A stretch of 55,831 nucleotides of DNA, taken from contig JAQGDQ010002420.1 in NCBI GenBank assembly GCA_030141605.1, positions 1 to 55,831 on the forward strand, given 5' to 3'. The notes under the pieces are model-generated. The model saw only the letters and a program-made list of their open reading frames with translations. It was not told the DNA's origin and did not search any database. The stretch comes from Tubiluchus corallicola (lineage: Eukaryota; Animalia; Priapulida). A program made the translations under genes and the position numbers. Shown here piece after piece: positions 1,326 to 29,575 of the stretch (positions within the stretch are counted from its first letter, which is position 1; each line of letters begins with the position of its first letter).

Positions 1326-1349
1326 CAAAAAGCCCCCGATTTTATAGAT

Positions 1350-1387
1350 AAAAAGAAGCGGCACCGGATATCTGCATCAGGTGCCGC
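1350..1387 (-). terminator. Intrinsic terminator-like hairpin after TRAP dctP
   Basis: GCGGCACC/GGTGCCGC stem (1358-1365 / 1380-1387) followed on the minus strand by TTCTTTTT. Confidence 0.7.
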
Positions 1388-1399: not shown

Positions 1400-2440
1400 C
1401 TAATCAAGCTCTATGGCATAAGCCTTGTCGAGCTCCTTTTCACATTTGTCTATCACGTTGACAAACTTGTTGTACCAGCCCTGGTTCTCTTTGGACTTGT
1501 TCAAAAACCAATCCGCCATGCCCTTAGAAGCATCGACAAACATCTTCTTCTCTTCAGGACTTGGAGAGTACACAACGCCTCCCTTCTTCCTGAAAGCCTC
1601 ATACGACAGGCTGTCATGATATTTTGGGTAAGCATAGAGATACTGCTGCAACACCTGAAATCCTTCTGCGACGATCCTCTGATATTCTTTAGGCATGCTC
1701 CTGAGCTTCTGTTCGCTCATCATCCAAACTCCACTCATGTATGAGTGTTGATCCAGGATAATATATTTTAGGTGATCGTGAAGGTTCATAACCACGATGT
1801 CTGTTATGCCATTCTTTGTACCTTCTGCAACTCCGGTACCGAGAGATGTATAAACTTCTGGCCATGACACGCCCGTGGGAGTTGCCCCTAACTGTCTGGT
1901 CAACTCTTGCTGGAGAGGTGCGGGTATGGTTCTGATCTTGAGACCTTTCAAGTCTGACGGAGCTTTTACCTGCTTCTTTGTGGTGGCAAAGTTTCTCCAA
2001 CCTCCGGAATTGGTTATGGTCATTATTCGAACATTCGGCAAGCTCGTCTTCATACCAACCCTGAGGTCTTTTACAAAGTCGTGCTGTTCATAAACACATT
2101 CCGCCACATCATCATTTTTGAACATGTAAGGCAGGTCTAAAACCTCAATGGGGCTCCAAAACAGCGCCGCCTCACCGGCTGTGGTTTGAAATATGTCATA
2201 AACACCACTTTGAACCCCTTCCAAACATTCCCTTGCACTGCTGCAAAGCTGAGCGCCGATAAAAGCCTTGACGGTTATATTCCCATTACTGGCGTTCTCA
2301 ACGTAGTTTTTGAAAGCCATCATACCTATGTAGTTGTAATTATCCTTGCCAGTAACGCTGGGCCACACAAGGGTATAGGTCTTGGCATACGCACTCGCAG
2401 AAAACAGAACCGCAAGTAAAACTAATAATATCCTCTTCAT
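1400..2440 (-). CDS. dctP: TRAP substrate-binding protein (DctP family), HpsK-like organosulfonate clade
   Basis: Signal peptide ending ASAYA; DLKGLKIR motif; FKNYVE.ASNG, FIG.QLCS...ECL, GGWRNFA and KNGITDI segments that I recall from roseobacter HpsK. Confidence 0.9.
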   Translation of the reverse strand: MKRILLVLLAVLFSASAYAKTYTLVWPSVTGKDNYNYIGMMAFKNYVENASNGNITVKAFIGAQLCSSARECLEGVQSGVYDIFQTTAGEAALFWSPIEVLDLPYMFKNDDVAECVYEQHDFVKDLRVGMKTSLPNVRIMTITNSGGWRNFATTKKQVKAPSDLKGLKIRTIPAPLQQELTRQLGATPTGVSWPEVYTSLGTGVAEGTKNGITDIVVMNLHDHLKYIILDQHSYMSGVWMMSEQKLRSMPKEYQRIVAEGFQVLQQYLYAYPKYHDSLSYEAFRKKGGVVYSPSPEEKKMFVDASKGMADWFLNKSKENQGWYNKFVNVIDKCEKELDKAYAIELD

Positions 2441-2487
2441 AAATCCTCCTTAACTTATATTAACAAACTTGTCATCCGGCTTTAAAA

Positions 2488-3774
2488 TTATCTAAAAAGC
2501 AAATTTGGCAAAAACAGCACCAGTCCAGGTATAAATGTAATTAAAAATACAACAAATATCTCCACAGCAATGAACGGCAGGATAAATTTTGATATGGTCA
2601 TCACCTTTGAACCGCTAACGGATGATGCCACAAATAGTACTAGCCCCATAGGCGGAGTAGCAAGGCCTATGGTGACATTCACGCACATAACTATAGCAAA
2701 ATGAACTGGGTCAACCCCAAGATCCATCATAATAGGCTGCAAAATCGGTCCAAGTATCAATATTGCAGGGCCCGCATCCAAAAACATCCCTATGAAGAAC
2801 AAAAATATATTCACAAGAAACAGTATGAGATAGGTGTTGGAATTTGCCCCTATTACTTTTTCTGCTATTATGCTCGGCGTTTCAGAGTAGCTCACCACAA
2901 ATGAAAACGCTTGGGCTGCCGCAACGAGCAGCAGTATTGCACTGGCTTGAATCGCAGCTCGTTTAAATATTGGCCCTAAGTCCTTCACGTTTAGGGTACG
3001 TTTCACGATCAAGCCCACCAGGAGCGCATACGCAACAGCAACGGCGGCAGCTTCAGTAGGGGTAAACCAACCGCTCAGTATCCCTCCTAGTAATATCACA
3101 GGTGTCATGAGCGGCCAAAAAGCTATCTGTAAGCTCCTACCTCTCTCTTTCCAGCTGCATTTTTCATTTGCCGGGGCAAAGTTATACTTCTTCGACATAA
3201 AATATGTCACCGTCATCAAAGCCCCGCCCATGAGCAGACCTGGCAAAAGCCCTGCGGCAAACATTTCGCCCAAATTCACATTCATAACGAACGAATATAA
3301 CACCATCAGACCGCTAGGAGGTATGATGGGCCCGATAACGGACGAAGCCGCCGTAACCGCTGCGGCAAAGGATTTTGAATAACCGTTCCTCTCCATGGCG
3401 GGGATAAGCATGGAGCCTATGGCGGAAGTATCCGCAACGGCGGAACCGCTAAGACCTGCAAAAAGGATAGATGAGGCAATATTCACCTGGGCCAAACCAC
3501 CTCGGAAATGCCCTATCATGGATTTGGAAAAATCAACCAATGCCTTTGTCGTGCCTCCGTGGTTCATCACCTCTCCGGCGAGGATGAAGAACGGCAACGC
3601 CATTATGGGAAACGAATTAATACCGCCAAATATTCTACCCATTAGCCCCTTGAGCAGCATCGGCTCCGTGACCTGCAAGTAAATGCCTGAAGCCAAAAGC
3701 ATCCCGAAAAATACCGGTACACTCAAGATTAAAGCGACAATGAATATCCAAAAATATATAGTTGCGATCATCAT
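2488..3774 (-). CDS. dctM: TRAP large permease DctM
   Basis: ALPFFILAG, GLSGSAVAD, GPIIPPS, DPVHF, TPPMG motifs; about 12 hydrophobic segments. Confidence 0.95.
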   Translation of the reverse strand: MMIATIYFWIFIVALILSVPVFFGMLLASGIYLQVTEPMLLKGLMGRIFGGINSFPIMALPFFILAGEVMNHGGTTKALVDFSKSMIGHFRGGLAQVNIASSILFAGLSGSAVADTSAIGSMLIPAMERNGYSKSFAAAVTAASSVIGPIIPPSGLMVLYSFVMNVNLGEMFAAGLLPGLLMGGALMTVTYFMSKKYNFAPANEKCSWKERGRSLQIAFWPLMTPVILLGGILSGWFTPTEAAAVAVAYALLVGLIVKRTLNVKDLGPIFKRAAIQASAILLLVAAAQAFSFVVSYSETPSIIAEKVIGANSNTYLILFLVNIFLFFIGMFLDAGPAILILGPILQPIMMDLGVDPVHFAIVMCVNVTIGLATPPMGLVLFVASSVSGSKVMTISKFILPFIAVEIFVVFLITFIPGLVLFLPNLLFR

Positions 3775-3839
3775 TCCTCCTCAAGAAAAAGTCCGGCCAA
3801 ACAAAACCAGAAAACAACACCTATTGCGCCACAGGAGCG

Positions 3840-4541
3840 TCATATCTTAACATCGCTATGGTCTTCCAACTCTACTTCCGCTTCATGAAAAGACTCTTGG
3901 ATATTCAGCATACGGTGATAATTTTTGCCGTTCATCAACTCCATGATAAACATCAAACCCTTCTGCATTGATGCAACAAGCATCGATGCAATACCTATGG
4001 GTAGAGCAACATATATCCAGATAAGCTTAAAGCCCATGGAGCCGGAAGTTGAGTAAAAGCCGTTCTTGACAAAAATAAGACTGAGATGGAGCATCCCCAT
4101 TAAGACGACCAGCTCAATTATAAACACGAGCCCACTCAAAGCCGCCCTACCCCTCAACGGCAACTTCTCCATGATAATATCTATATTCACCAAAAGGCTA
4201 TGCTTGTAGGCGTAAGGCGCCACGAGAAAACACATCCACACCATCATATAAAGCGCCAATTCTTCTCCCCAGCTAGGGGCTACAAAAAACTTACGCATAA
4301 ACACCTGATAAAATATGGTGGCAGTCATAATGAACAGGGAAGAGATTGCCAAAATAAGGAATATTTTGAACACAAAGTTGGTAATGCGGTCAAGTCCAAA
4401 AAGAATCTTCTCCAGCACAAATTCCGCCCGCTTAGGCACAAGAGCCAACGACACCAGCGACACCGCAGTAAAGAGTATTATGAACAATATAAACACCTTC
4501 CACTCAGCGGATATATCTTTCAGAAAGCCAAACCAAGTCAT
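3840..4541 (-). CDS. dctQ: TRAP small permease DctQ (with an extra N-terminal TM segment)
   Basis: QVFMRKFF..PSWGEEL..Y..VW motif; adjacent to dctM; ATGA overlap with the upstream gene. Confidence 0.9.
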   Translation of the reverse strand: MTWFGFLKDISAEWKVFILFIILFTAVSLVSLALVPKRAEFVLEKILFGLDRITNFVFKIFLILAISSLFIMTATIFYQVFMRKFFVAPSWGEELALYMMVWMCFLVAPYAYKHSLLVNIDIIMEKLPLRGRAALSGLVFIIELVVLMGMLHLSLIFVKNGFYSTSGSMGFKLIWIYVALPIGIASMLVASMQKGLMFIMELMNGKNYHRMLNIQESFHEAEVELEDHSDVKI

Positions 4542-5413
4542 AATACCTCCAACAGGCTTTTTATGTCCGTGACGATAAGGCCGGAGTTTCTCAAAGACTC
4601 AATAAATTTCTCATCAGAAAACATCTCGTACTCCATCCTTCTTAAAAATGCATTATGCGGGGCAATGTGATACATATCCGCACAAGTATCCGGATGTATC
4701 GACAAGAAATGTATTCCCCTGGGCAAGTTCGTATACATTTTGTAGTAAAAATCCCTGACATCCGCACCATCCTCGAGATGACCGGGCGTCATTACAAAGC
4801 TATCGAATTTCAACGGGAGCTTAGATCCATAAATCTTAAACATCTCCTCATAAGCAGAAGCCTCTACTCCCGTGGGGTAGAAGAACTCCGCAAATGAAGC
4901 AGAATCCCGTACAAGCACGGGCAATACCTCGTACTCCTCACAAACACTCATGAACGCTTCCACAACATTCGGGAGCATAGCTGCACCCATGTGCGCATCA
5001 GCGTGACTCAGCCTGATACCATCCGCAAGCGCTCTGTCAAACTGAGCTCTAATCTCCGATTTGGCGTCACTTGGGGTGACATTGTTCAAAACTTGCAGGT
5101 TTTTCGAATGAAGATACCCAGAAGCATCAGTCAGTGACTTGCCATTTGTAAGACCTCTCCATCGATAGCTCTTCCACTCACTTGTAAGGGTTATGTGGAT
5201 ACCCACATCAACTTCAGCATCAAGCCGCCTGTAAAACTCCAAAACTCGGATAATACGGACATACTACCATGACAGATCCACAAGAAACGGTACCCTTTGT
5301 GCTCATAAGCAGGAGAATTCATTTGAACCATGACTCATCCCCAAATCATCCACATGAGGAACCACAACGACAGAACGCTCAAGCATATCTTTAGATACAG
5401 GCACGTCAATCAC
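4538..5413 (-). CDS. ChbG/YdjC-family carbohydrate deacetylase (two apparent frameshifts near 5248 and 5318)
   Basis: HVDDLGMSHGSN at the N-terminus (read by hand from 5413), then GIHITLTSEW, SHADAHM and HP metal-binding motifs; GTGA overlap with the nagB-like stop. Confidence 0.8.
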
Positions 5414-6264
5414 CTCAAAACAGGCTCGGGCATATCGAGTACACCTCTAGTAACGCCAACACTAACATCACAATGTCTCTGTACCAGTGAAGCGGGAAAA
5501 GCCCCGGTAATATCGCCGAATAGCATCCTACGCAATGCAGCACAATGCCAATCTCTGTTCATAAATATTCTGATCTTTTCAGCGCTCAAAATCTCCTTCA
5601 TCCCCACAGTAATGGCAAACTTAGGCATCCTCAAAGTATTGCCCCTTGCAGCAGTAACGGAGTTGATAGTGATGCTCATCTCACGGAGTTGGACAATTCT
5701 AGTCTCGAGCGATGCAAAAAGATCAGGATCCTCATAACCTTCCAAGGGGTCGTTAAAAGCCAAATGTCCCGTTATTCCAACACCTGCATATGTGACGTCC
5801 ACGCCATGTTCTTTGATAATATCAGTATATTCGTTGATATCGTCAGGTTTTGGAAAATAACATTCCGGTCTCCTATGCGTCTCCAGCTTGTTAATGAGAT
5901 GCTCATCGATGTGGCTGCGGAAGCTCAATGGGTCTTCTCTCGGTATCCACTTGCAGGATGGTGTCAAATACTCATCCATACCGAGCAGGATAAGACCGCT
6001 GAGGTCTATATTATCCTTGATCGCCTTTTCAGCCATTATGTCGTACTGCCCAACAGGCCCTACAGGAACTATAAACACAGCCCTTTTCTTCCCTTTGGAC
6101 ATGATAGTTGAGTAATCTTCAAGCATCTTTTCAGCGATGCTATTTATCATCTCTTCATTCTTCTCAAAAACTTCCACGGGGAAGGGGGAGCATCTGACAA
6201 CCTCTTCCCCGGTCATGCCAAGAGCCTTTTCGCTCAGAGAGCTCAACCCATAGTAAAAACTCAT
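5410..6264 (-). CDS. Glucosamine-6-phosphate deaminase (NagB)-like protein, PVGPVGQY variant
   Basis: MDEY catalytic Asp motif, GVGITGHLAFNDP, AITVGMKEIL and FPASL.QRH motifs. Confidence 0.85.
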   Translation of the reverse strand: MSFYYGLSSLSEKALGMTGEEVVRCSPFPVEVFEKNEEMINSIAEKMLEDYSTIMSKGKKRAVFIVPVGPVGQYDIMAEKAIKDNIDLSGLILLGMDEYLTPSCKWIPREDPLSFRSHIDEHLINKLETHRRPECYFPKPDDINEYTDIIKEHGVDVTYAGVGITGHLAFNDPLEGYEDPDLFASLETRIVQLREMSITINSVTAARGNTLRMPKFAITVGMKEILSAEKIRIFMNRDWHCAALRRMLFGDITGAFPASLVQRHCDVSVGVTRGVLDMPEPVLR

Positions 6265-6273: not shown

Positions 6274-8490
6274 TTACCTGACAAACAGGACGTCACCCTT
6301 CACAAGAACGTCCGCCTTTCCATAAACTTTGTAGGAGACTTTCCCCGTTTTAAAAGCTATTTCCGCATGAGCATCAAAGACGGTCACTTTAATATCTTCA
6401 TCCTCATAGTTTTTATTGGGCACGCCGTAAATGCCGACAAAATCTAAAGTGCCGGTTGAGGCAAACTCTCCGGTATGTTGAACCTTCGGGGCAAACTTTA
6501 TCACCGCCCCATCTGCCACAAATACGGGCGCTCTATCCAGTTCGTACACAGAATCTACGACAACCCCTCCCCTGACAGATTCTCCAGTAAAGAAGTTGTA
6601 GAATGTGCCTTCGGGCAGCATATAGTTCGCACGCCCGCCCTCGGCTATTATCGGAGCACAAAAGATATCGTCCCCGAGCATATATTGGTACTCATAGCTC
6701 CAGAGTTCTTTATTGTTCGGATAAGCTAAAGGCATTGCCCGCACAATGGGGATCCCGTAGGCATTAGCTTGTTTGCCAGCATTCATTATGTATGGAATGA
6801 GGGAGTATCTATAGCCCAACCATTCCCTGGCAATCCTAATCCCTTCGTCGCCAAAGATCCAAGGCTCTCTATCCCCGATACCGTGAAATCTGGTATGGGA
6901 TGCGAGTATTCCGGCCTGCATATAACGCACAAATATCTCTAGGTTTGGCTGCTCTCCATAAAACCCTCCGATGTCGTAGGAATAGTACGCAGCGCCACAA
7001 AGACCCCAAGACAGATTGCCCATAATAGCCCCTCCCAGACCACCAAAGCTTGTCTGAGAGTCTGCCGACCACTGAGCTCCATACTTTTGGGAACCGGTCC
7101 AACCGCTCCTGCCCCACAGGACTGCATTGCCTGCCCCCATCTTTTCTTCTAAAGCTTCGAAGCAAGCTCTGTTATAAATCAGACCCAAGGCATTGTGATA
7201 GTATCTACCGCTGTCGCCATTTAGAGCTATCATGTCAGCTTCCACCTGTTCGCCAAAGTCAGGCTTGAGACAGGAAACACCCATATCGACCATCTTGTGT
7301 ATCTCTTCCTTCCACCACTTTACCATCTCAGGGTTTGTAAAATCATATATGCCGCTCTCGGGCAAAGGAGTCAAAACCTCCCCAAAAGGAGCCATATCCC
7401 ACTCAAACTTCGAAGGTGAACCGTCACTATTTTTTAGCAGAAAATCTTTGTCCGCAAGCTCAGAAAAACGCTCGTGATCAACGGATAAGTTTGGATACAG
7501 CCAGCAGTTGACATGAAAATTCAGGTCTTTCAAGTCTTTAGTAGATTTTTCGGGATCGTCAAACCGTTTTTTGTCCCATTCAAAGATAAATCTAGTGTCA
7601 GTATCCTGCCAAGCCCTGCCGTCGTAAGAGATAACATCTGCAGGCAGTTTTTTATCACGAAAAGTTTTCGCAGCCTCATAAGCGTCATCAGGGGTTGCAT
7701 AATATGCTTTTGATATCCAAGCCCCGTAAGACCAAAGCGGCAATATCGGGGGACGACCCGTAAGCTCAGTATATTTATACAGCATGGAAGCAGGTGTCGC
7801 AGCTCCAAATAGGAACAGGTCAAAAACCTCATCCTCCGTTTCAAGAATGTAAGATATGTGAGACAACGGAGCATATCCTATCGCATGCTTCGTGTCAGCA
7901 GTGGTGTGAAGATATATGCCCCAGCCCTTTGGGCTCCAAGCAAATGGAGTGTTTTTGTAAGTCTCCTCGTGATTGACACCCAAGGAATCTTCGTTTCTGT
8001 TCAGTATCAGCGCGCCGCGATGATTTAGTGCCTCGTGCTTTTCGCCTAAACCGTAAACCTTCTCCCCCAAAGGCAAGTCGAAACTGAACGTAAAACCGTT
8101 TGAAGTCGCAGCAATCGGAGGAAATTTAAACCTTTTGGTAAAGTAACTATCTGAAGAAGGAGAGAGCAGGACAGAACTGCCCATCAGCAGACTAACGCGC
8201 AGAGGAGACTTCTCCAATCGCAAAGTGTAACCTCCAGCTTTGACGTCGTAGCCCTCTTCATTGATGACGACCTCCAAACTCGCACGCTCATACTTCTCTA
8301 TTATCCCGTACTCATTCCTGTTCGCAGAATTGTTTATGGAAAATCTGAAAACACCACAACCATTAGAGGTCACCACAGCAGAACCAGCACTCGTCTGAAA
8401 ACTAAAACAATCATGAAATATCTTGGCGTCAGTAATCTCATCAATAGGAGCAACCTTATCAACATCAACCAAAAGTCTATTCATCTTCAT
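6274..8490 (-). CDS. GH31 alpha-glycosidase (YicI-like)
   Basis: YGLGE, YKNTPF, LTGRP..P.W, KPDFGE nucleophile, WSAD acid/base, DIGGF, RFHG..REPW motifs. Confidence 0.92.
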   Translation of the reverse strand: MKMNRLLVDVDKVAPIDEITDAKIFHDCFSFQTSAGSAVVTSNGCGVFRFSINNSANRNEYGIIEKYERASLEVVINEEGYDVKAGGYTLRLEKSPLRVSLLMGSSVLLSPSSDSYFTKRFKFPPIAATSNGFTFSFDLPLGEKVYGLGEKHEALNHRGALILNRNEDSLGVNHEETYKNTPFAWSPKGWGIYLHTTADTKHAIGYAPLSHISYILETEDEVFDLFLFGAATPASMLYKYTELTGRPPILPLWSYGAWISKAYYATPDDAYEAAKTFRDKKLPADVISYDGRAWQDTDTRFIFEWDKKRFDDPEKSTKDLKDLNFHVNCWLYPNLSVDHERFSELADKDFLLKNSDGSPSKFEWDMAPFGEVLTPLPESGIYDFTNPEMVKWWKEEIHKMVDMGVSCLKPDFGEQVEADMIALNGDSGRYYHNALGLIYNRACFEALEEKMGAGNAVLWGRSGWTGSQKYGAQWSADSQTSFGGLGGAIMGNLSWGLCGAAYYSYDIGGFYGEQPNLEIFVRYMQAGILASHTRFHGIGDREPWIFGDEGIRIAREWLGYRYSLIPYIMNAGKQANAYGIPIVRAMPLAYPNNKELWSYEYQYMLGDDIFCAPIIAEGGRANYMLPEGTFYNFFTGESVRGGVVVDSVYELDRAPVFVADGAVIKFAPKVQHTGEFASTGTLDFVGIYGVPNKNYEDEDIKVTVFDAHAEIAFKTGKVSYKVYGKADVLVKGDVLFVR

Positions 8491-8987: not shown

Positions 8988-9767
8988 TTATCTGATCTGT
9001 CTGGAACCGTTCTTCGTGGCAACTATGAGTTTTACACCACTGCCTATCATTTTATCCAACAGCCGCTTTGGGGGTTCTTTATCCGTGATTACGGTATCCA
9101 TATCTTCTATATTTGCCAACGCAACGTTGGCTTTTGTGTTGTACATTTCACTCTTCAACAACAGGAGTTTGTGCCTTGACATACTCATCATCTTTTGTGC
9201 CACATCCACTTCACCTCTATTGTAGTCTAGTATTATGCCATCTTCACCGATAGCACCTCCGGAAAAAACCACATAGTCCGCCACAAAAGAACCTACATAC
9301 CTGATAGCTTCATACCCCGTTATGCCGGAATTGGATGTATTAACCCTGCCAGGGACCACCGTGATCCCAACATTCTCCTTCATAGATAACATGCTTGCCA
9401 CATTCAGACTGTTGGTAACAACCTCGTAGCACTTATCGACCCTTGACGCAAAAGCCTCAACAGTGGTGCCTATAGTGACAAAGATCATAGAGTGTTCCGG
9501 GATGCAGTTTAGTGCGGCCTCTGCAATCCATTGCTTCTCCATGGCTTGCAATGCATATCTTGTCTGAAAATTGACATTCTTGACACTAGACAGCGCCAAC
9601 ACCCCGCCATGATACTTCGTCACAAGATTTTGGTTCACCATCTCCGCAATATCTCGCCTGATGGTCTGAGCACTCACCTTAAACTCTTCCGAAAGCCACT
9701 CCACACCGCAATAACCGTGCTTCTGTACTATTTCAAGTATTTCTTTATGTCTAGCATTCTTGTACAT
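8988..9767 (-). CDS. csqR: DeoR/GlpR-family regulator, CsqR (YihW)-like
   Basis: HTH VSAQTIRRDI; SSVKNVNF, IFVTIGTTVE, NSGITG, ADY..SGGAI resemble E. coli YihW as I recall it; divergent from yihU. Confidence 0.75.
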   Translation of the reverse strand: MYKNARHKEILEIVQKHGYCGVEWLSEEFKVSAQTIRRDIAEMVNQNLVTKYHGGVLALSSVKNVNFQTRYALQAMEKQWIAEAALNCIPEHSMIFVTIGTTVEAFASRVDKCYEVVTNSLNVASMLSMKENVGITVVPGRVNTSNSGITGYEAIRYVGSFVADYVVFSGGAIGEDGIILDYNRGEVDVAQKMMSMSRHKLLLLKSEMYNTKANVALANIEDMDTVITDKEPPKRLLDKMIGSGVKLIVATKNGSRQIR

Positions 9768-10036: not shown

Positions 10037-10927
10037 ATGAAGACAGGTTTTGTAGGTCTTGGAATAATGGGTTATCCCATGGTTATGAACCTTATTAATG
10101 GCGGTATTGATGTAAAAGTGTTTGATATAGATAAGGAAAAATTAAATAGCATTGTAAAAAATGGTGGAAAAGAGGCAAAAAGCCCGAAAGATGCCGCCAG
10201 CGATGTGGATATTGTAATCACTATGTTGCCAAATGGAGCCATCGTCAGGGATGCGGTGTTTGGTTCTGACGGCATTGCTAAAGGGTTGAAGCCTGACACT
10301 CTTTTTATCGACATGTCAACTGTTCACCCTTTGGAATCGGATGCTTTGCGCAAGGATCTAAATGCACTGGGCTTTCAGATGATGGACGCACCTGTGGGCA
10401 GAACTTCTGAACACGCAATTCAGGGAACTCTCTTAATACTTGCGGGGGGCACATCAGAACAGATAAAGAAAGCACAGCCCCTGTTTGACCTCATGGGGAG
10501 CGATACCGTCAACATGGGCGGAGAAGGAAAAGGGATAAGGATAAAGATCATCAACAATCTGATGAGCATCGCCCTAAACGGCTTATCTGCGGAAGTAATG
10601 GCGCTGTCTGAAAAGCTCGGATTGAAGTTTGACGATGTTATGTCCGTTTTTTCTGGAACTCCTGCGGGGAAAGGACACTTTACTACCACATGGCCCCAGA
10701 GGGTATTGAAGGATGATTTATCGCCTCTGTTTATGTTGGGGCTTGCACACAAAGACCTTGGGATTGCAATAGATGTTGGAGCAAAGCTGAATGTACCGCT
10801 ACCCATGTCAGCTTCTGCTCTCCAGGCGTACTCTACTGCCATGGCAAACGGCAGAGGGACTGAAGATTGGAGCGCAATGTTTGAAGATGCTAAAGTGAAT
10901 TGTGGATTAAAGCCCAAAAAGGGTTGA
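10037..10927 (+). CDS. yihU: 3-sulfolactaldehyde reductase (beta-hydroxyacid dehydrogenase family)
   Basis: GLGIMG Rossmann motif; DAPVGRTS carrying the Gly-Arg-Thr sulfonate pocket; KIINNLMSIALN; GKGHFTTTWP..VL..DLSP.FM..LAHKDLGIA closely matching recalled E. coli YihU; AGGAGG RBS. Confidence 0.9.
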   Translation: MKTGFVGLGIMGYPMVMNLINGGIDVKVFDIDKEKLNSIVKNGGKEAKSPKDAASDVDIVITMLPNGAIVRDAVFGSDGIAKGLKPDTLFIDMSTVHPLESDALRKDLNALGFQMMDAPVGRTSEHAIQGTLLILAGGTSEQIKKAQPLFDLMGSDTVNMGGEGKGIRIKIINNLMSIALNGLSAEVMALSEKLGLKFDDVMSVFSGTPAGKGHFTTTWPQRVLKDDLSPLFMLGLAHKDLGIAIDVGAKLNVPLPMSASALQAYSTAMANGRGTEDWSAMFEDAKVNCGLKPKKG

Positions 10928-10961: not shown

Positions 10962-12032
10962 ATGGGAAATTCGATAAAGGTGCACAAACGCAAAGATTGT
11001 GAAGACATTCATGAGATAAATCTTTTCTTACAGGGGATCGATATTTCTGTGCTCAACTACGGTTGCACGCTCAACAAACTACTTACCCTTGACCGGAACG
11101 GACACTTTGGGGATATTGTGCTGGGTTTTGACGATCCTTATCGGTATACGGAAGCTCACCCTTTTTTCGGATCTATAGCTGGCAGATTTGCAAACAGGAT
11201 TAAGAACGGAACATTCTATCTCGAAGGCAAGAAATACACCTTAGCTACAAACGAAATATCGACAGGAAGTCACCTCCATGGAGGTGTCAGGGGATTCGAT
11301 AAATATCGTTGGGATTACGATGTTTCGAGCGGCAAAGACTGTGAAGAGGTAATTTTCTACAGGCAGTCTGAAGACGGTGAGGAAGGCTACCCCGGGAAAC
11401 TACTTATAACCCACACAATAAGAATAACATCGAGCAATGAATTATTCTTCATATTTGAGGCGGAAGCCGAAGAGACCACCATATGCAACTTGGTCAATCA
11501 TAGCTATTACAATCTATCCGGTGGGTCTTCCGGCAACGTATTCAACCACAACATAGAGGTGTACGGAGATAATTATCAAAGAGTGGATTCCTCTTGCATT
11601 CCCAACGGAGAACTCGGATTTACCAAAGATATATTCAAAAATAGCGGCAATATTGGCGAAGCCATCGCTACCCATTATGACCCAAGCTTGGGTGTCCCTG
11701 GGGCTATAGACTACAACTTTATCTTAAACTCGGAAAGCGAGCACGGCTTAAGAAGAGCTGCACTGGTATCTGAGCCCTCTTCAGGAAGAATAATGGAAGT
11801 CAGCACAAACTTGGAGGGTGTACAGATTTATAACGGTTTTAAACTCGGGATAAAGAGGTGGATCGGAAAAGGCGGCACCACATATTCTTCATTTGGTGGC
11901 TTGTGCCTTGAAACGCAGCATTTTCCAAACTGTATCAATACCGAAGATGATGCACACCAATGCATCATAGACAAGGGCGAAAGGGCGAAGTATATCACCA
12001 GACACAAGTTTCTTTGCGATATTGGTGCTTAA
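10962..12032 (+). CDS. galM: Aldose 1-epimerase (mutarotase), likely sulfoquinovose mutarotase by context
   Basis: GRFANRI, HLHGG, GEEGYPG, NLVNHSYYNL, GLCLETQHFPN. Confidence 0.88.
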   Translation: MGNSIKVHKRKDCEDIHEINLFLQGIDISVLNYGCTLNKLLTLDRNGHFGDIVLGFDDPYRYTEAHPFFGSIAGRFANRIKNGTFYLEGKKYTLATNEISTGSHLHGGVRGFDKYRWDYDVSSGKDCEEVIFYRQSEDGEEGYPGKLLITHTIRITSSNELFFIFEAEAEETTICNLVNHSYYNLSGGSSGNVFNHNIEVYGDNYQRVDSSCIPNGELGFTKDIFKNSGNIGEAIATHYDPSLGVPGAIDYNFILNSESEHGLRRAALVSEPSSGRIMEVSTNLEGVQIYNGFKLGIKRWIGKGGTTYSSFGGLCLETQHFPNCINTEDDAHQCIIDKGERAKYITRHKFLCDIGA

Positions 12033-12072: not shown

Positions 12073-12856
12073 ATGTTAGATGAAATATCCATTTTGACTG
12101 TATTTGCATTGTGCATAATTATAATGTTTGGTGGATTTGTTCAAGGTCTTACGGGCTTTGGATTGGCTTTGGTGAGTGTCCCCCTACTGTCTTTAGTTGT
12201 GGATGCCAAGATGGCGATCCCCCTGGCGGGCATATACGGTTGGCTTGTTACACTACCTATTGTTTACAAGATGAGGGGGTCGGTCGTATACCCTATCGGC
12301 ATTGCTATGTTTGTCTGTTCTATTCCCGGAGCATGGTTGGGGGTTGATCTGCTTATCATACTGCCGGAATGGGCAATTTTAGCCGCTATGGGCTCAGTGC
12401 TGATATTTGTCAGCCTATATTCTATACTCAAACACGGCACCAGCGGCGTTACGTTCAAAAACAGAATGTCAGAATACGGTTTTGGCGGCGCAGCCGGTTT
12501 CTTAGGGGGCGTGCTCGGAAGTGCTGTTGGAGAACCGGGACCACCCGTAATCGCTTATACATCTTTTCAGAAATGGACTGGAGATCAGATAAAGTCCACC
12601 TTGGCATTTTACTTCATGCTGCAGATGATGATAACTTTGAGCGCATATTACTATAAAGGGATATTCACAAGTGAAGTCACTTGTGGGTCGTGCCGCATAC
12701 ATGATGCCGACATTTATCATAGGCGCATGCGCAGGCATGTGGAGCTACGCGCATATGAAGAAAAACAACATCAATTTTCATAAAATAGTCCACATTTTAC
12801 TAATATTTATAAGCATAGGCATACTTTTTAAATCATACTCAAAGTTTGCGGCTTAA
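12073..12856 (+). CDS. TauE/SafE (TSUP) exporter, probable sulfonate (DHPS) exporter; frameshift near 12678
   Basis: GFVQGLTGFG..L..VP and G..GPP repeats; ORF 12073-12783 joins hydrophobic ORF 12671-12856. Confidence 0.82.
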
Positions 12857-12881: not shown

Positions 12882-13836
12882 ATGGATAAGCTTAGTGCAT
12901 TAAAACAACACACAGTAGTAGTCGCAGATACCGGCGACTTTGAATTAATAGCAAAATACAGCCCAGAAGACGGAACAACAAACCCTACATTGATCTACAA
13001 CGCTTCGCAATTGCCCCAATATGCTCACCTTGTGGAGAAAGCTGTCAGCATAGGAAAGAAGAGCTCCCTTTCGGGAGAAAAGCTCCTGGACTACGTCAAT
13101 GACAGGCTTGCAATACTTTTTGGTCTTGAGATATTGAATATCGTGCCGGGAAGGGTCTCAACAGAAGTTGATGCCACCCTGTCTTTCAATAGAGACGGCA
13201 CCATTGACAAGGCAAAGCAGATTATAGACCTATACAAAGAGGCAGGCGTGGATAAAGAAAGGGTGTTGATAAAGATAGCAGCCACATGGGAAGGTATAAA
13301 AGCTGCTGAACAGTTGCAGAAGGAAGGCATAGACTGCAATCTCACATTGATTTTTCACAAAATACAAGCTGTCGCGTGCGCTCAAGCTGGCGCATATCTC
13401 ATATCCCCCTTCGTAAATAGGGTTCTCAATTATTTTGAAAACTTGGGGCAGACGTTTGATGATCCCGCAAAACACCCCGGCGTGGTCTATGTGAAGGAGA
13501 TACACAACTACTATAAGAAGTTTGATCACAAAACCATAGTCATGGCAGCCTCTTTGAGGAAAGTTACAGAAGTGTCAGAGCTTGCCGGTCTTGACAGGAT
13601 GACCATACCTGTTCCTTGGAAGAGCTGCAGAATACTGAAGGCAATATGGACAGGTCATTGAGTGTTGCAGCGGCAAGGCGTCGGATGAAGAGAAGATTGA
13701 CGCTAATGAAAATAGATTCCGCTGGGATATAAATTCATGTCCTATGACATGCGACAAGCTAAGTGATGGTATAAGACTATTTGCCAAGGATTTAAGCGCT
13801 CTAAAGGGCTTCATGGCAAAGAAACTCGAGATGTAG
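12882..13836 (+). CDS. tal: Transaldolase, TalA/TalB type (two apparent frameshifts near 13613 and 13675)
   Basis: VVADTGD, TTNP, STEVD, LIKIAATWEG (Schiff-base Lys), CNLTL, ISPFV, MAASLR; shifted C-terminus FRWDIN..M.CDKLSDGIRLFAKD ending at TAG 13834-13836. Confidence 0.9.
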
Positions 13837-13850: not shown

Positions 13851-15187
13851 ATGAATAAACCAAGAATTGTGTTGTTTGCCTTAGGCAGACCTTTATTTGA
13901 TGTTGAATTTGCGGAAGCACAGGTTCGCAAAGCGTTGGAAAATTTGCAAAACTTACCCATCGAGATCGTCCAAAAAGAGGGAATTTTATTTGACGAAGCA
14001 GAAGTCGATATCGCCATCAACGAGATGGAGGACAGAGACAACATCGATGCAGTCCTCATATTGCAAGCGACATTTTCGGATGCCAGCATAACGAAGAAGA
14101 TAGCGAGCATGATCGATGCTCCGATAATACTCTGGTCATTCCCGGAACCAAGACTTGAGGACGATTGAAGACCAACAGTTTTTGCGGCGTAAATCTGGCC
14201 TGTCACGTGCTGAGCAGAGAAGGAAAAAAATACTTCTTTGTCCACGGAGATGGCAGTGACAGCTCCATACCACCGGAAATTAATGGAATAGTCAGAGGGT
14301 CTTATTCCGTCAAAAAGGTAAAAGGCGGAAAGATTTTAGCTGTGGGCGATTTTCCTGGAGGGTTTGACAGTTGTGACTATAGCGCCGAAGAGCTGGCAGA
14401 AATATTTAATATCGAGATAGTCCCCAGGGATATTGGGGGATTTTTGTCCGACGTTGCGAAGGTGCCGAATGATGACGCGAGTAGGTTTTTTAATAAAATC
14501 AAGCCCATGTACGAAAACTTGGAAGAGCACGATTTTGAAACAACTCTAAAAACTTTGAAGGTATATCTTCATACAAAGCAGATGGTGGAAAGGGAAGGTT
14601 TTTTGGGTATTGCCATGAGGTGTTGGCCGGAATTCTTCACAGAATTTGGGGCGTCAGCCTGTGGAGCTTATTCATTTTTGGGGGAAGATCTCATTCCAGC
14701 AGGTTGTGAAAGGGATGTTTTTGGAGTTCTTACGAGTCTGACCTTGCAAAATATAGGAAATGACAAGGTATTTAATACAGACATCGTGGAGGTCTCATAC
14801 ACTGACGATTCTGCAGTCTTGTGGCACTGCGGCCAAGCTCCCATATCCATGGCAAAAGAGGATAAGATAAGGGCAACACTTCACAGCAACAGGAAAAAAC
14901 CACTACTAAACGAATTCACCCTAAAGCCGGGCTACATCACCATAGCAAGGCTAAGCAGAGGAAATAACAGGTTGAAAATGATCTTAACGGGAGGCGAGAT
15001 ACTTGACCGCCCATTGCCATTCTCTGGGACCTCTGGAGTTGTGAGATTTGATAAACCGTGCAAGACGACGATAGAGTTTCTCCTGAATGAGGGGTTAGAA
15101 CATCACGTGTCGATAGTGTATGGAGATCACAAAAATGGTGTGAAAACATTTGCAAAGCTGATGGACATAGATTTGCTGGAGATATAG
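13851..15187 (+). CDS. L-fucose/L-arabinose isomerase-family protein, SqvD/SftI-like sulfoquinovose isomerase candidate; frameshift near 14158
   Basis: QATFSDA..WSFPEPR(G)GRLKTNSFCGVNL across the junction; RCWPEFF, CERD, WHCG, EHH motifs. Confidence 0.78.
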
Positions 15188-16563: not shown

Positions 16564-19115
16564 GTGTTGAAAAAAATCACCCCTATGATGCAACAATTTT
16601 TTGACATAAAGAAAGATTATCCTGACAGCATACTCTTCTTTCGCATGGGGGATTTTTATGAAATGTTTGGTGATGACGCCGTTATTGCATCCAAAATCTT
16701 GAATATTGCCCTCACCAGCCGCAATAAATCAAATGACACGGAACCGATGTGCGGCATACCGTACCACTCCTACAAATCATACCTCATTAAACTGTTGAAA
16801 GAGGGACAAAAAGTTGCCATATGCGAACAGCTGGAAAACCCAGCTGATGCCAAGGGGCTGGTAAAAAGGGGCGTCACGAGGGTCGTCACACCCTCTACTG
16901 CCATTGAGGAGGAGTTTGGCGATACGACAGAGAACAACTTCTTGATGTCTGCATATCACGATAACGGCACATTTTACATATGCTGCGCCGATGCATCCAC
17001 AGGAGACATCTATCTTCAGGAAGCAAAAGGCATTGACAAACTACAAAATATTGCAGAGCAGCTGCACATAAAGGAAGCCGCCTCCAACATAAATCTGGAC
17101 TTCTTCCCGAGCTCCATGTTGCGTATAATTAAAACCCAAGCGATCAACACGGCGTTAAGGGTTGTCTTAAATAGACTGCAAAGTACATCCATAAGGTCTC
17201 TGGGCATAGATAACGAAGGATATGTACATGCTCTTTTTCAAGTGTTTGAATACCTTGATGAAATAATGCTTGATGCGGAGTTTAAGCGCCCTGTGCTTAT
17301 CAATCCTACGGATCGCCTCGTCATAGACAGCGTTGCTGCCAGCAAATTAGAGCTTGTGACAAATAGTGACTTAGGCACCAACAACACTCTGTTTTCTGTG
17401 TTAAATTTTTGTAAAACGGGCATGGGGAGCAGACTTCTAAGGCGAAATATCCTCTACCCCCTACAGGATGCAAAAAAGATCAACAAACGATTGGATATAG
17501 TAGAAGCCCTGATAAGACACAAGAACGTGCTGCCGGAAATATCTAACATTTTGAAGAATATCCACGATATAGACAGAATTTTTGTCAGGATCAATACCAA
17601 TCGCAGCAACCCGAGGGATTTAGTTTGGCTCAAAAATTCCTTGCACAGCCTGCCTATGTTGCAGAAAATACTTGTGAATCTGGAAGAAGGGCTCCTGTCG
17701 GAGCTCACCACAAAATTTTCCAAAAGTTCACAGATTTACGAGCTTCTGGAGCAAAGCATATGCGACGAACCATCCTTAAATTTGAAGGAAGGCAATATCG
17801 TAAAGCTGGGTTATAACGCCACCGTGGATGAGCTGCGCGACATAAAGGATAATAGCCATAAAATCCTAAAGGAGATGGAGACGGACGAAAGAGAGAGCAG
17901 TGGAATAAATAACTTGCGCATAAACTACAACAAGGTGTTCGGCTACTATATAGAGGTCTCAAAGTCGAACCTTTCCAAGGTTCCGAAACATTATGAGCGG
18001 AAACAAACCTGGTAAATAACGAACGTTTCGTAACAGAAAAGTTGAAAGAGCTGGAGAGTAAAATTTTAGATGCCGAAGAGAGGCTCTATGGTGTAGAGTA
18101 CGAAATTTTTTGCAAGGTGCGGGAAGAGTTGCTCACCTTTGGCTCTCTGATCAGAGAGCTTTCTGAAAAGACGGCAGAAATAGATTTCTTTGTATCCTTG
18201 GCAAACGCGGCGTTGAAGTATAGGTACGTCCGCCCCATCGTTGATGATGATAACAAAATAAGCATCATGAAGGGACGACATCCGGTTGTAGAACACTCTG
18301 TCGAGGGGGATTTCGTATCGAATGATATCTATATGGATACGGAAGATGCTAGGCTTTTGGTTATCACAGGGCCGAACATGTCCGGCAAAAGCACATACAT
18401 ACGGATGACGGCGACGCTGGTTGTTATGAGTCATATCGGTTCGTACATTCCGGCAGATTATGCTAAAATAGGAGTTGTGGATAGGGTTTTTGCAAGGATA
18501 GGGGCTGGAGATAATCTATCCAGAGGAGAATCCACATTCATGGTTGAGATGGTTGAGGTGGCAAATATCCTGAATAATGCCACAAAAAAATCTCTGCTCA
18601 TAATGGACGAAATAGGACGGGGTACCTCTACTTATGATGGAATATCCATAGCTTTTGCGGTGTCTGAATACGTCTTGTGCAGCTTAAAGTCCAAGACTAT
18701 GTTGGCAACTCACTACCATGAGCTGACGGATCTCGTGACGGGTATTCACGGAGCTAAAAATTTGACGATCCAAGTAAAGGAGCACAACGGCAGCATAGCA
18801 TTCACAAGAAAGATAACCGAAGGAAGTGCCGATAAAAGTTATGGTATATACGTCGCCCAGCTTGCGGGGTTGCCAAAAGAGATTATAGAGAGAGCAAACG
18901 AGATATTGCATCATTTAGAATTAAATAACAGTAACAATGCCCAAAATACCAGAGTGGTGCCAAAAGAGAGAATAGTGGAACATGTACTCGTGTTTGAAGA
19001 TAGTGAAGCTGTGGAAAAGCTGAAAAACCTGGATATCAACAGCCTAACCCCCATTGAAGCGCTAAATGTTTTAAGCGAGCTAAAAGTTGTAGCAGAGAAG
19101 GAATGTGCGTCATGA
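16564..19115 (+). CDS. mutS: DNA mismatch repair protein MutS (apparent frameshift near 18010)
   Basis: TPMMQQ, FFRMGDFYE, PMCGIP; GPNMSGKST Walker A, MDEIGRGT, ATHYHEL, SYG; junction KQT(L)VNNER needs one extra base. Confidence 0.95.
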
Positions 19116-19693: not shown

Positions 19694-19721
19694 TTGACTA
19701 AATATTTTAATGCTATATAGT
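19694..19721 (+). promoter_or_regulatory. Candidate sigma70 promoter of the HU-OmpA gene
   Basis: TTGACT, 16 nt, TATAGT. Confidence 0.45.
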
Positions 19722-19776
19722 GGTATTCTTCGGGGTGTGGTTTTGCCCGGCAAAATTTTTTATGTTAAGAGGTTTT

Positions 19777-20784
19777 ATGAACAAATCTCAATTAATCGAG
19801 AGGTTATCGGAAGATACCGAGCTCACGGGAGAGCAGGTTAGCGAATTTTTAACGGCTCTGCAGGATACGATTGTGGAAACCGTCCACGATGGAGATATCG
19901 TTAAGATAAGCTCTTTTGGCACATTTGCTCCTCACAAGCTTCCGTCGAGGGTGATAAGGAGCATACAAGATGCTTCTCTGATTGTTACACCTGAAAAAGA
20001 CACGGTAAAGTTTAAGCCTGGTTCAAAGCTCAAGGAGCCATTTGCGGTTAAAGCTGTGCCTGTCAAGAGAAAGCATGTTCAGATGCCTGAAGCGTCTGAG
20101 ACGGTTGAGACGGTTCCTGCTAAAGAGAAATCGAAGAAGCCGCAGCTGATCATCGCTGTTGTTTTAGTCTTGGCCATAGGATTATTCGCTCTTAACCAAT
20201 ACATGCGGGACAAAAGCACAGGCGAGGACGCGATGGTCGTACCGGAGCCCGAAGTTGTGGTGGCAAGCGTTGAAGAAGTACCTCCGCCGATTGTGGAAGA
20301 AGTGCCGCCGGTCGTGGAGGAAACACCACCGGAACCGCCAATTGTGGAAGAAGTGCCGCCGGTCGAAGTTGAAGAGGAAATTAATATCATCGATCAGCTT
20401 TTCCTCGTGCATAATGAGCATGTCCAATCTTACATAGAGGATGATGTCTACATTATGTTGGTGTTTTTCAAGCCCTACGGCGTTGCGCTCACTTCTGACA
20501 TGAAGAGTTCTATGCAGCCAGTGATGCAGCAGATATTTGAGCATAGTGAACACATAGACAGGATAATAGTGGAAGGGCACGCGGATGCTTCCGGAGATAA
20601 AGATGAAAATATTATGCTTTCGAGCCTCCGAGCAGAGAATGCGTACTACTACATTGAGCAGTACAGTCCTCAAATTGAATTTTTCATTGAGAATAAAGGG
20701 ACTGTCGCCCCCATGGGTTCAAACGATACGACTGAGGGAAGATCTCTGAATAGAAGGGCCCAAGTGATGATATTTTTCAAGTAG
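19777..20784 (+). CDS. HU/IHF domain - TM helix - Pro/Glu/Val-rich linker - OmpA-like peptidoglycan-binding domain fusion
   Basis: MNKSQLIERLS..V.ISSFGTF..VKFKPGSKLKE (HU); LIIAVVLVLAIGLFAL (TM); VEGHAD..G....N..LS..RA and N.T.EGR.LNRR (OmpA-C). Confidence 0.85.
   Translation: MNKSQLIERLSEDTELTGEQVSEFLTALQDTIVETVHDGDIVKISSFGTFAPHKLPSRVIRSIQDASLIVTPEKDTVKFKPGSKLKEPFAVKAVPVKRKHVQMPEASETVETVPAKEKSKKPQLIIAVVLVLAIGLFALNQYMRDKSTGEDAMVVPEPEVVVASVEEVPPPIVEEVPPVVEETPPEPPIVEEVPPVEVEEEINIIDQLFLVHNEHVQSYIEDDVYIMLVFFKPYGVALTSDMKSSMQPVMQQIFEHSEHIDRIIVEGHADASGDKDENIMLSSLRAENAYYYIEQYSPQIEFFIENKGTVAPMGSNDTTEGRSLNRRAQVMIFFK
20290..20365 (+). repeat. Intragenic 25-nt direct repeat encoding IVEEVPPV
   Basis: ATTGTGGAAGAAGTGCCGCCGGTCG at 20290-20314 and 20341-20365. 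Confidence 0.9.
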
Positions 20785-24336: not shown

Positions 24337-25083
24337 TCAATTAAAATGGTTTAAAATATCATTGAGATAGATAACTCCATCAAAACCATCTATCTCTCCG
24401 CTGATGATACTTCCCTTCTCGCCCGACTCAGCTCCTAAGCAAGTGACCACTATATCAGCTTGCCCCAAATCTTCATCCACGGTGTATGGATTCACGGTAG
24501 CCAAGACATTTGTCCCAGCTCTTTTTGCAGCGGTTACGCCTATGTGCGAATCCTCCACAACTAAGCATTCAGAAGCTTCAATCCCCACCCTGTCGAGACC
24601 GGTTTGATATATTTCAGGGTCAGGTTTCTTTTTGTTTACCATATCTCCTGCAAGGATAAAGTCAAACTTTATATCGGATAAAAACTTCTCGGAGATTAGG
24701 CTAGCGACCCTTTCGTTAGAAGTGGTACAGATACCGATATGCAACCCCTTATTCTGTATCTCCTTCATAAACCTGAGCACACCTGGGCGCAAAGGCAACT
24801 CGCCACCCTCTAGCATCTCCAAAAATATGTCAGTTTTCCTCTTGTGCAACTTAGGCACCAGAGTATCCACACTCTCCGGAAGCTTCACATTATTGGTCTC
24901 AAAAAAATGTTTCATCCGCTCCTTTCCACCACCAACCTGCAACAACTTGTGGTACCCATCAACACTCCATGACGCATCTATGCCAAACTCCTCGAAGACT
25001 TTGTTAAAAGCAACCCGATGTCCATCCTTTTCAGTGTCTATGATTACTCCATCTTGATCAAAAAATACCGCCTTAATAGCCAT
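24337..25083 (-). CDS. HAD-superfamily sugar phosphatase, CbbY-like
   Basis: FFDQDGVIIDTEKDGHRVAFN, GGGKERM, KKPDPEIY, VVEDS; RBS before ATG 25083. Confidence 0.88.
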   Translation of the reverse strand: MAIKAVFFDQDGVIIDTEKDGHRVAFNKVFEEFGIDASWSVDGYHKLLQVGGGKERMKHFFETNNVKLPESVDTLVPKLHKRKTDIFLEMLEGGELPLRPGVLRFMKEIQNKGLHIGICTTSNERVASLISEKFLSDIKFDFILAGDMVNKKKPDPEIYQTGLDRVGIEASECLVVEDSHIGVTAAKRAGTNVLATVNPYTVDEDLGQADIVVTCLGAESGEKGSIISGEIDGFDGVIYLNDILNHFN

Positions 25084-25144
25084 TGTCCCCTCCTCATCTA
25101 TCTTAACAAAAGGATAGTCGTATTGCATCAGAGTATCACAGGGT

Positions 25145-26014
25145 CTATGCCTTGCCAGCACAACCCAAAAGATCAATAAACCTCTCAATGCTCTGCACTA
25201 TCTTCCCTCTTACATACTTATCAATCTTTCCCGGATTATATTCATCCCTATGTCCGTCTATGTACTCATAAGTTGCATCGATCAGGACTCTCTTCAGCTC
25301 TGTTGAAACATTAAACTTTGCTCCACCTGCAGACACCAACCTCTTAACGACATCATCGCTTAGCCCCGTTCCCCCATGTATGACAAGAGCTGATCTGTAG
25401 GCGTCGCCATTCACTATTTGTGCAATCTTTTCAAACCTGTCAAAATCCACATTGGGTTCTCCCTTGTAAACTCCATGCGCTGTGCCGATAGCGGGAGCAA
25501 AAAGATCTACCCCGGTCTTTGAAACAAACTCAAGCGCCTCATCAGGATCACACAATCTCGCCTCGTCTTCGTCGACGACGAGTTCATCCTCAACACCCAA
25601 GACCCTGCCTAATTCGCCTTCAACGGTAATGTCACCCTTATCTCTGCAATAATCTACAACACCCTTTGTAATCTCGATATTTTTATCAAGCTCATTATGG
25701 GATGCATCGATCATGATATTTGTATATCCTGCATCGGCACAACGGATGCATAAGTCCACATCCTCACAGTGATCAAGATGCAGGCAAACAGGGATATCTA
25801 CCCCTCTTGCTATGGCCTTATAAGCGGACGCAATGACCTCAGGGCCGATAAACTTCACGGGGGAGACGGATGTCTGTATAATGACGGGAGATCGCTTGTT
25901 ATGCGCAGCCTCCACAACAGCTTCCATCTGCAAAATGTTCGTAATGTTGAATGCCCCGACAGCATAGCCACCTAGGCTAGCCTTTCTTAACATCTCTCTT
26001 GCGTTCTCTATCAT
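25145..26014 (-). CDS. Class II (metal-dependent) ketose-phosphate aldolase
   Basis: AVGAFN, HLDH, MIDAS, VEGELG, GTAHG, IHGGTG, KFNVST. Confidence 0.92.
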   Translation of the reverse strand: MIENAREMLRKASLGGYAVGAFNITNILQMEAVVEAAHNKRSPVIIQTSVSPVKFIGPEVIASAYKAIARGVDIPVCLHLDHCEDVDLCIRCADAGYTNIMIDASHNELDKNIEITKGVVDYCRDKGDITVEGELGRVLGVEDELVVDEDEARLCDPDEALEFVSKTGVDLFAPAIGTAHGVYKGEPNVDFDRFEKIAQIVNGDAYRSALVIHGGTGLSDDVVKRLVSAGGAKFNVSTELKRVLIDATYEYIDGHRDEYNPGKIDKYVRGKIVQSIERFIDLLGCAGKA

Positions 26015-26038
26015 TACAGAAGACCTCCTGATTACAAT

Positions 26039-27358: not shown

Positions 27359-27397
27359 ACAAAAATCCCCCAGCGTCTTTACATGCAAATGTAGTAA

Positions 27398-28354: not shown

Positions 28355-29233
28355 AATAGGCTGTTCACTCTAAACAGCTCTTCAATATCGGCATATTCTT
28401 GAGCCGATACGGGCAAAAGAGGCAACCTGGGAACGCCTGCTTGTATCCCATAATATTCATTGCAGCTTTAACCCCCGCAACGCCGCCCTTTCCGAAACAC
28501 GCTGGTTCAGCATGTATATAAAGAAGTGCAGATCAAGGCCCCTCTTGGCATCTCCGTCCAGAAAGCTTCATAAAGCCGCAGCGATCAGCATATAGTTTGC
28601 AAGGGAGATTATTCCACCGCTTGCGCCGTAGCTAAGACCTGTGTAAAAAAAGTTTGCAGAGCCTGCCAACAGATGAAAATCGTCAGCCTCTCTGAGGCAC
28701 TCAAGATAAGACATCAAACCAGAAGTAGAGCTATCCTTCATCCCGACAATATTGGGATGCTCGGCAAGCTTTGCCACCACAGACGGGCTAACTGACACAT
28801 TTGAGCAAAAACCTGGAGCGTTGTATATGAGCAAAGGTATAGGCGACTTATCTCCAAGATCTGAATAGTATTTTAACAAAACATCATCACTCATGCTCTT
28901 AGAAAAATAATGAGGCGGCAACACACTGATGAAATCCACATTAAATTCGGACACCTTCTTGATAAATTCAAAAGTCTCGTGCAGAGATTCCCGACTTGCG
29001 CCAACCATCAAGACCTTATCACCCTTCTTTTCGCTAAATACTCTAACGACAGACAGCTGCTCACCCTCAGACAGGCTCATAAATTCACCATTGCTCCCCA
29101 ATGCCAAATAACCCCTCAGACTCGACCCGCTCATCTTTTCCAAATTGTATTCAAGCCAATCAAGCCGCAACTCTTCGTTGTGAAAAGGAGAAACCAACGG
29201 AGCAAATACCCCGGACAGCAAATTTTCAAGCAT
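28351..29233 (-). CDS. DapA/DHDPS-family aldolase, GSNGE (HOGA-like) type; several indels in the 3' third
   Basis: GSNGE, IYNAP, IVGMKDSS; shifted frames give GVAGVKAAM..MGY..G.PRLPL, ending in an ATGA overlap with the next gene. Confidence 0.82.
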
Positions 29234-29279
29234 AATAAACCTCAAACGAATGTTGTACAACCAACAAAAATCGTCTCCC

Positions 29280-29531: not shown

Positions 29532-29575
29532 GCCGCAGCAATGTAGAAATAGTTTGTCAAGGAGGAAATAGACAA

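Follow-up and report, generated by a model that had tools for sequence, protein, structure and literature searches.

The stretch of DNA analysed here (the window; 55,831 nucleotides) encodes a full-length transaldolase of the TalA/B type, which has probably been recruited as the sulfofructose (SF)-cleaving enzyme of a sulfoquinovose (SQ) pathway predicted from the surrounding genes (Table 1). The first-pass annotation of this DNA had proposed such a recruitment together with a convergent remodelling of the anion pocket for a sulfonate; the content of the operon and its synteny with clusters of Pseudovibrio support the former, whereas the latter is not supported by the residues of the pocket.

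The predicted sulfoglycolysis operon

Five genes on the same strand, from yihU through the mutarotase gene, tauE and tal to the sqvD-like isomerase gene, follow each other with gaps of 34, 40, 25 and 14 bases, and a divergent deoR gene lies next to yihU. The YihU protein scores above the cut-off of its family model and keeps R123, N174 and S178, the sulfonate pocket residues given in PMC8006165; a pathway with this reductase would need a C3 sulfoaldehyde and thus a cleavage of SF between C3 and C4. Both the sulfolactaldehyde reductase and the sulfonate exporter that characterize reductive sulfo-TAL clusters are present (YihU, TauE), and, as far as the window extends, the cluster is likewise free of an SF kinase and an SFP aldolase: SF kinases and LacD-type aldolases gave no match in the 55.8-kb window at E<=1e-3, and the sole match of SqvA queries across it was tal itself. 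A class II aldolase gene, 36% identical to SqiA-type genes, lies 10 kb from tal and adjoins an FGGY kinase gene. Against NF048012 (cut-off 700) the isomerase scored 48 and 211 bits in two pieces, compared with 304 bits for its Pseudovibrio orthologue; it falls into the same subfamily as the isomerases found beside SqvA, YihV and SqiA.

Table 1. Features of the window that bear on the predicted SQ pathway
Feature	Position	Strand	Remarks
NagB-like, YdjC deacetylase-like, TRAP transporter DctQ/DctM/DctP	1400..6264	-	probably the uptake arm of the locus
GH31 glycosidase, YicI-like	6274..8490	-	candidate entry glycosidase; 412 bits YicI-type vs 189 YihQ-type
DeoR-family regulator, divergent, likely CsqR-like	8988..9767	-	closest, among the loci, to the regulator of the Pseudovibrio cluster (39%)
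YihU sulfolactaldehyde reductase	10037..10927	+	NF012005 397 bits (cut-off 348); PDB 6SM7 354 bits
Aldose 1-epimerase, likely SQ mutarotase	10962..12032	+	PF01263; 45% to the gene at the same Pseudovibrio position
TauE-family exporter, likely for DHPS	12073..12856	+	PF01925; 55% to Pseudovibrio, 49-52% to TauE of SqvA clusters
TalA/B-type transaldolase (tal)	12882..13836	+	319 aa after correcting indels at 13615 and 13669; likely SF-cleaving
EVDATLS segment of tal	13164-13184	+	R100T
SPFVNRVLNY motif of tal	13404..13433	+	S176, F178, R181 kept; G180N, D184N, W185Y changed (E. coli numbering)
MAASLRK motif of tal	13542..13562	+	phosphate ligands S226, R228 kept; G224A, F227L, N229K changed
SqvD/SftI-like SQ isomerase	13851..15187	+	445 aa with indel at 14156 corrected; NF048012

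Synteny with sulfo-EMP clusters

Of 556 genome loci with a relative of the window isomerase, the best 80 were compared. SqvA is encoded at 24 of them and a PfkB kinase and/or an aldolase at 30 (27 have both); the remaining 26 have neither nearby, many of these being cut by contig ends. SqvA and kinase/aldolase genes share a locus in none of the best 80, which indicates that the cleavage slot is interchangeable. Two Pseudovibrio loci (L011 and L016), the best matches among these 80 for DeoR, YihU, epimerase and TauE, show the gene order deoR, yihU, mutarotase, tauE, X, isomerase, which is that of the window. In Pseudovibrio, X is a class II aldolase with 463 bits to the structures 8Q57/8Q58, listed as SqiA entries in PMC10665668. 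The Pseudovibrio kinase gene sits between deoR and yihU, and the L011 copy matches the SF kinase 7AG6 with 353 bits; the 269 bases that separate deoR and yihU in the window leave no room for a kinase. The window locus thereby resembles the hybrid sulfo-EMP clusters with SqvD, YihV and SqiA (Hafnia/Yersinia type; L011, L016) in gene order and in an identity of 39-61% per gene, but differs from them in that X is a TalB instead of SqiA, that the SF kinase is absent, that the genes for TRAP transporter and glycosidase are placed on the opposite side, and that a YicI-like GH31 takes the place of YihQ. The presence of a TalB in the aldolase slot, combined with the loss of the kinase, makes a role in SF cleavage likely and is the main argument for it.

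Alternatively, tal might encode an ordinary F6P/S7P transaldolase which landed or hitch-hiked in the operon, SF being cut by a kinase and aldolase or by SqvA encoded elsewhere in the genome. Cleavage genes located elsewhere are conceivable given the 26 isomerase loci among the best 80 without one nearby and the class II aldolase 10 kb away. However, tal occupies exactly the aldolase slot, the kinase too is gone from its usual place, and not a single TAL-family gene was found at the 30 kinase/aldolase loci among the best 80 of 556. To our knowledge, a transaldolase has no evident use in a kinase/aldolase route. We therefore consider an ordinary transaldolase rather unlikely, although further observations on the active site, described below, count in its favour.

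Two other observations were made on related loci. An apparent sulfo-EMP-type cluster is found on the Zymomonas mobilis plasmid NZ_CP003710.1 (L118, 5501-18936), with genes for a PfkB kinase, a class II aldolase, a mutarotase, an SqvD-like isomerase, a Gfo/Idh/MocA oxidoreductase, a TonB receptor and an aldehyde dehydrogenase. In genomes of betaproteobacteria, SAR324, Spirochaetia and Solibacteraceae (L024, L027, L019, L021, L041, L049, L070), the isomerase gene has an SqvA-type neighbour with the W-A-R residues; these groups lie outside the sulfo-TAL phyla listed in the review PMC12890257.

The tal gene and its product

In the window sequence tal starts with an ATG at 12882, its stop codon ends at 13836, and the frame is shifted near 13615. 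Compared to contigs of run X1, 4 bases are missing at 13615 and 1 base at 13669; correction of these indels, as suggested in the first-pass annotation, recovered the complete frame. The X1 contigs also lack the window's frameshifts in tauE, where an assembly error lies near 12681-12690, and in the isomerase gene, whose correction is present in run X2 as well (X2 derives from the same sample as X1). Since a single X1 short-read contig covering 11707-13938 is identical to the window at the motif codons, the unusual residues of the tal protein are not assembly errors. X1 possibly represents the window's own sample, so these contigs correct the assembly and do not constitute an independent occurrence. 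GC content (0.45) and GC3 (0.49) of tal are like those of the neighbouring genes and thus give no sign of recent transfer. A promoter scan performed at chance level (20 found vs 16.1 +/- 4.6).

The product of tal is a TalA/B transaldolase. Its best NCBIfam model is TIGR00874 (talAB), which the truncated frame of 261 aa matches with 341 bits (cut-off 396), vs 84 bits for the short FSA/TalC model, and the protein scores 276 bits against E. coli TalB and 48 against BmSF-TAL. Its length of 319 aa is close to the approximately 317 aa of the TalA/B group, and an alignment-based model of residues 1-243 (pLDDT 97.5) adopts the TalB fold, lying within 1.1-1.4 A of TalB structures; a single-sequence fold was uninformative (pLDDT 41.6). 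Thus, the earlier description as a long TalA/B-type protein between exporter and isomerase was accurate, as was its statement that the catalytic residues are kept: D17, N35, E96, K132, N154, T156, S176, F178, R181, S226, R228 and F302 are all found (E. coli numbering, used throughout unless noted). These include the set D17, N35, E96, K132 and F178 typical of transaldolases and not of FSA, and E95 and F177 in the protein's own numbering mark it as a transaldolase rather than an FSA. With the housekeeping TalBs of E. coli and Francisella the window protein shares 50% identity (157 of 315 positions for E. coli TalB), the fold, the catalytic residues and the phosphate site R181/S226/R228 (R180, S224 and R226 in its own numbering); it differs from them in lying within a predicted sulfoglycolysis operon and in carrying G180N, D184N, S37T, W185Y, F227L and N229K. 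In a tree of 133 sequences tal is sister to P0003, P0007 and P0048 with a support of 0.62, which is too weak for naming a donor.

The branch of tal in this tree is terminal and long (0.96 vs a median of 0.56), which, together with the frameshifts in the window sequence, might point to a decaying, relaxed copy whose odd residues reflect drift. This seems very improbable, because the X1 contig is free of the frameshifts, the corrected gene is full length with all catalytic and anion-binding residues kept, and the structural model is confident.

Residues around the anion pocket

The replacement of SPFVGRILDW by SPFVNRVLNY beside the phosphate-binding Arg, recorded in the first-pass annotation, is real. 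In a survey of 299 pooled TalB homologues (the aligned number varies by column), G180N and D184N were each found in 0 of 288, W185Y in 15 of 288 and N229K in 5 of 259, and S37T occurs in 28 homologues of the pooled set; the last three substitutions are known as variants. N180 was also absent from 15 further TalBs (Spirochaetota and one betaproteobacterial genome) and from 29 further TalBs of the SAR324 phylum. The change is therefore rare within TalB, and, judged from the homologues compared, G180N and D184N exceed ordinary variation. At well-conserved columns the tal protein departs at 12 of 107; 56 of 229 homologues, among them many divergent cluster representatives, come to the same share. 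The reading of EVDARLS as EVDATLS was likewise correct, but its use as a sign of remodelling was rejected: R100T is ordinary variation, as 79 of 298 TalBs have a residue other than Arg at this position, with Thr in 3.

For several reasons the motif changes lend no support to a convergent remodelling as proposed. The residues of the TalB phosphate site, which we take to be numbered S226 and R228 in addition to R181, are intact, and the changed residues flank the pocket, the ligands themselves being unreplaced. In addition, VNR is normal outside TalB, the fsa genes of E. coli and Salmonella reading APYVNR; E. coli FsaA acts on phosphosugars. According to PMC3962226, the site, which includes R181, holds a sulphate ion by two Arg and one Ser, indicating that the native site is able to hold a sulfur oxyanion. 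That the substitutions are an adaptation to the sulfonate seems to us about half as probable as SF cleavage itself.

The marks of SqvA are absent from the tal protein as well. In BmSF-TAL the pocket segments read TTNPR, SPFVGW and AALR; R30, the basic residue after TTNP, presumably serves sulfonate binding, and the motif W138-A170-R172 (WAR) reportedly goes back to Snow et al. 2023 and the BmSF-TAL structure. WAR is postulated to orient the sulfonate in SF transaldolase, as stated in PMC11659671. Among 24 SqvA-type genes examined, W138 is present in all 24, position 30 is R in 18 and K in 6, and A170 (A-x-R) was matched in 21. Where SqvA has R30, W138 and A170, the tal protein, which reads TTNPT, has T36, R180 and S224 (own numbering), so that R-S-R stands for WAR; this combination of Thr, Arg and Ser is of the phosphate type, and the protein has therefore not converged on SqvA. 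The window enzyme shares with SqvA/SftT (BmSF-TAL, PDB 8BC2-8BC4) the superfamily, the Schiff-base chemistry, the kind of partners (mutarotase, TauE exporter, YihU/SftR reductase and, here as an SqvD/SftI-like protein, the isomerase) and a kinase-free cluster, but belongs to the TalA/B subfamily with 319 aa, whereas SqvA/SftT are TalC/FSA-type subunits of about 220 aa. It plausibly works like the transaldolase of the sulfo-TAL pathway, as a TalA/B and non-SqvA member known from one genome. According to PMC7491151, the characterised SftT accepts S7P as well, and SftI accepts F6P as well; an overlap between phosphate and sulfonate is thus normal in the sulfo-TAL pathway.

The intact R181/S226/R228 site, the missing SqvA marks and the occurrence of VNR in E. 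coli FsaA would suit an ordinary transaldolase, for which there is also a precedent: PMC11659671 describes Faecalicatena F2 as a second, SQ-induced TAL-family gene with Arg at W138, which its authors regard as probably not an SF transaldolase. Like tal, F2 differs from SqvA, belongs to an SQ cluster and seems to be a longer member of the TAL family; as described there, however, its catalytic Glu is replaced by Gln and a true SqvA accompanies it, whereas tal keeps the Glu and is the sole cleavage candidate of its cluster.

Search for further cases

The first-pass annotation had proposed to examine whether TalBs of the NRVLNY type track sulfoglycolytic loci; no second such TalB emerged from isomerase loci, metagenomes or phylum samples. 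None of the best 80 of 556 isomerase loci contains a TalB. Close relatives of tal did not turn up, the best of 8000 scored candidates showing 63% identity over residues 1-243; VNR was absent from the 29 matches of a motif-region search, and N at position 180 from the 150 best cluster representatives. Metagenome contigs were scanned with the pattern AG-x-x-[LIMF]-[IVM]-S-P-[FY]-V-N-R, which is strict and would miss variants; the 9 matches comprised 3 small TAL/FSA genes and 6 without a TAL match, and thus no TalB. The loci of the 3 small genes with VNR show no match to the YihU or isomerase of the window, which again fits an ordinary transaldolase. A Spirochaetota sample contained TalB in 13 of 301 genomes, only one of these 13 having the isomerase, approximately 113 kb or another contig away. 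In the SAR324 phylum TalB was present in 26 and the isomerase in 9 of 88 genomes, and the 5 genomes with both never had them on one contig. For Desulfobacterota, 6 of 301 sampled genomes had an isomerase match, with no TAL gene within 1.5 kb in any of them.

In a Spirochaetia genome, a sugar ABC cluster (L098, 7744-12313) includes a second, divergent TalB (APYVAR, AASFR) flanked by an FGGY kinase and a DeoR regulator; the same genome also carries a normal TalB. This paralogue shares with tal the A for G224, a non-F residue at 227 and P at 245. Such changes can therefore mark any non-housekeeping copy, and their recurrence is another point for an ordinary transaldolase in the window.

The left-hand genes and the substrate

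The genes on the other side of deoR show links to the isomerase family. Among the best 80 of 556 loci, 14 have relatives of the GH31 (38-49%) in the vicinity of the isomerase; they come from Desulfobacterota, SAR324, Alphaproteobacteria and Chloroflexota. DctM is 57-63% identical to the five best TRAPs in these loci. A YihQ-type sulfoquinovosidase was not found in the window, and GH188-like queries gave no match there. The GH31 clade of the window may represent an undescribed clade of sulfoquinovosidases. The segment 4538-6264 on the minus strand encodes a NagB-like protein, whose PVGPxGQY loop is conserved, and the YdjC deacetylase-like protein; both recur near SqvD-like isomerases (L039, L047, L049, L064, L078, L031). 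One might speculate that they feed a sulfonated amino sugar into sulfofructose; a literature search for such a route returned nothing.

The left-hand GH31/NagB-like/YdjC/TRAP operon raises the question whether tal cleaves a sulfonated ketose other than SF, for instance one that stems from a sulfonated amino sugar or epimer taken up through this operon. The YicI-like rather than YihQ-like nature of the GH31 would agree with this, as would the fact that, of the best 80 of 556 loci, 5 have NagB-like and 3 have YdjC genes close to a member of this isomerase family. We consider it improbable, however: the sugar-orienting residues N35, N154, T156, S176 and F178 are unchanged, which favours the stereochemistry of fructose; a route through deacetylase and deaminase would, by NagB chemistry, itself end at SF; and elsewhere this isomerase subfamily accompanies SF kinases and SFP aldolases of the characterised type.

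Proposed pathway

In the known pathway, as outlined in PMC7491151 and PMC12890257, an isomerase converts SQ to SF, a transaldolase converts SF and GAP to sulfolactaldehyde and F6P, and DHPS, which YihU forms from sulfolactaldehyde, is exported through TauE. By analogy, the mutarotase and the SqvD-like isomerase of the window would convert SQ to SF. TalB would form a Schiff base with SF through K131, D16 and E95 acting as in E. coli TalB (own numbering), release sulfolactaldehyde and pass the three-carbon unit on to glyceraldehyde-3-phosphate, which yields fructose-6-phosphate; YihU would then form DHPS, which would leave via TauE. The ordinary phosphate pocket of Arg-Ser-Arg would accommodate the sulfonate while still having to take the phosphorylated acceptor, and N179, N183 and perhaps K227 may tune this pocket. 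Most likely, tal would have taken over from the paired kinase and aldolase in an operon of the sulfo-EMP type. We put forward only tentatively that this represents a second, independent origin of SF transaldolases, in which a housekeeping-type TalB replaced these two enzymes in place and binds the sulfonate without the SqvA residues, by way of second-shell changes at N179, N183 and K227 around an intact Arg-Ser-Arg site.

The SF transaldolases described in the literature consulted by full text are all short enzymes of the SqvA/SftT kind, and SqvA serves as the query or marker in searches for sulfo-TAL. A TalA/B-type SF transaldolase was not found in the open full-text literature; the gene-cluster tables in supplements of SQ surveys could hold one. 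If the window TalB does cleave SF, searches based on SqvA overlook part of the sulfoquinovose degraders, and a short step would separate housekeeping in the pentose-phosphate pathway from the cleavage of sulfosugars. E. coli TalB, the window protein and BmSF-TAL form a clean three-way set for sulfonate vs phosphate selectivity. The weight of these points is limited by the single genome and by an SF cleavage that is predicted from sequence.

Further observations in the window

Downstream of the operon, mutS (16564-19115, plus strand) is read in two frames near 18015-18042, probably owing to an assembly indel, and a 354-aa frame at 19720-20784 (plus strand) fuses an HU/IHF-like DNA-binding domain with an OmpA-like C-terminal domain. 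A sugar-acid cluster at 24337-30541 comprises a HAD phosphatase, a class II aldolase, an FGGY kinase, a 2-hydroxyacid dehydrogenase, a DHDPS-family lyase and DctP; the window encodes at least 4 TRAP binding proteins. The left-hand operon is closed by a GH116 N-terminal domain (3-1364, minus strand), whose gene is split and runs off the window edge.
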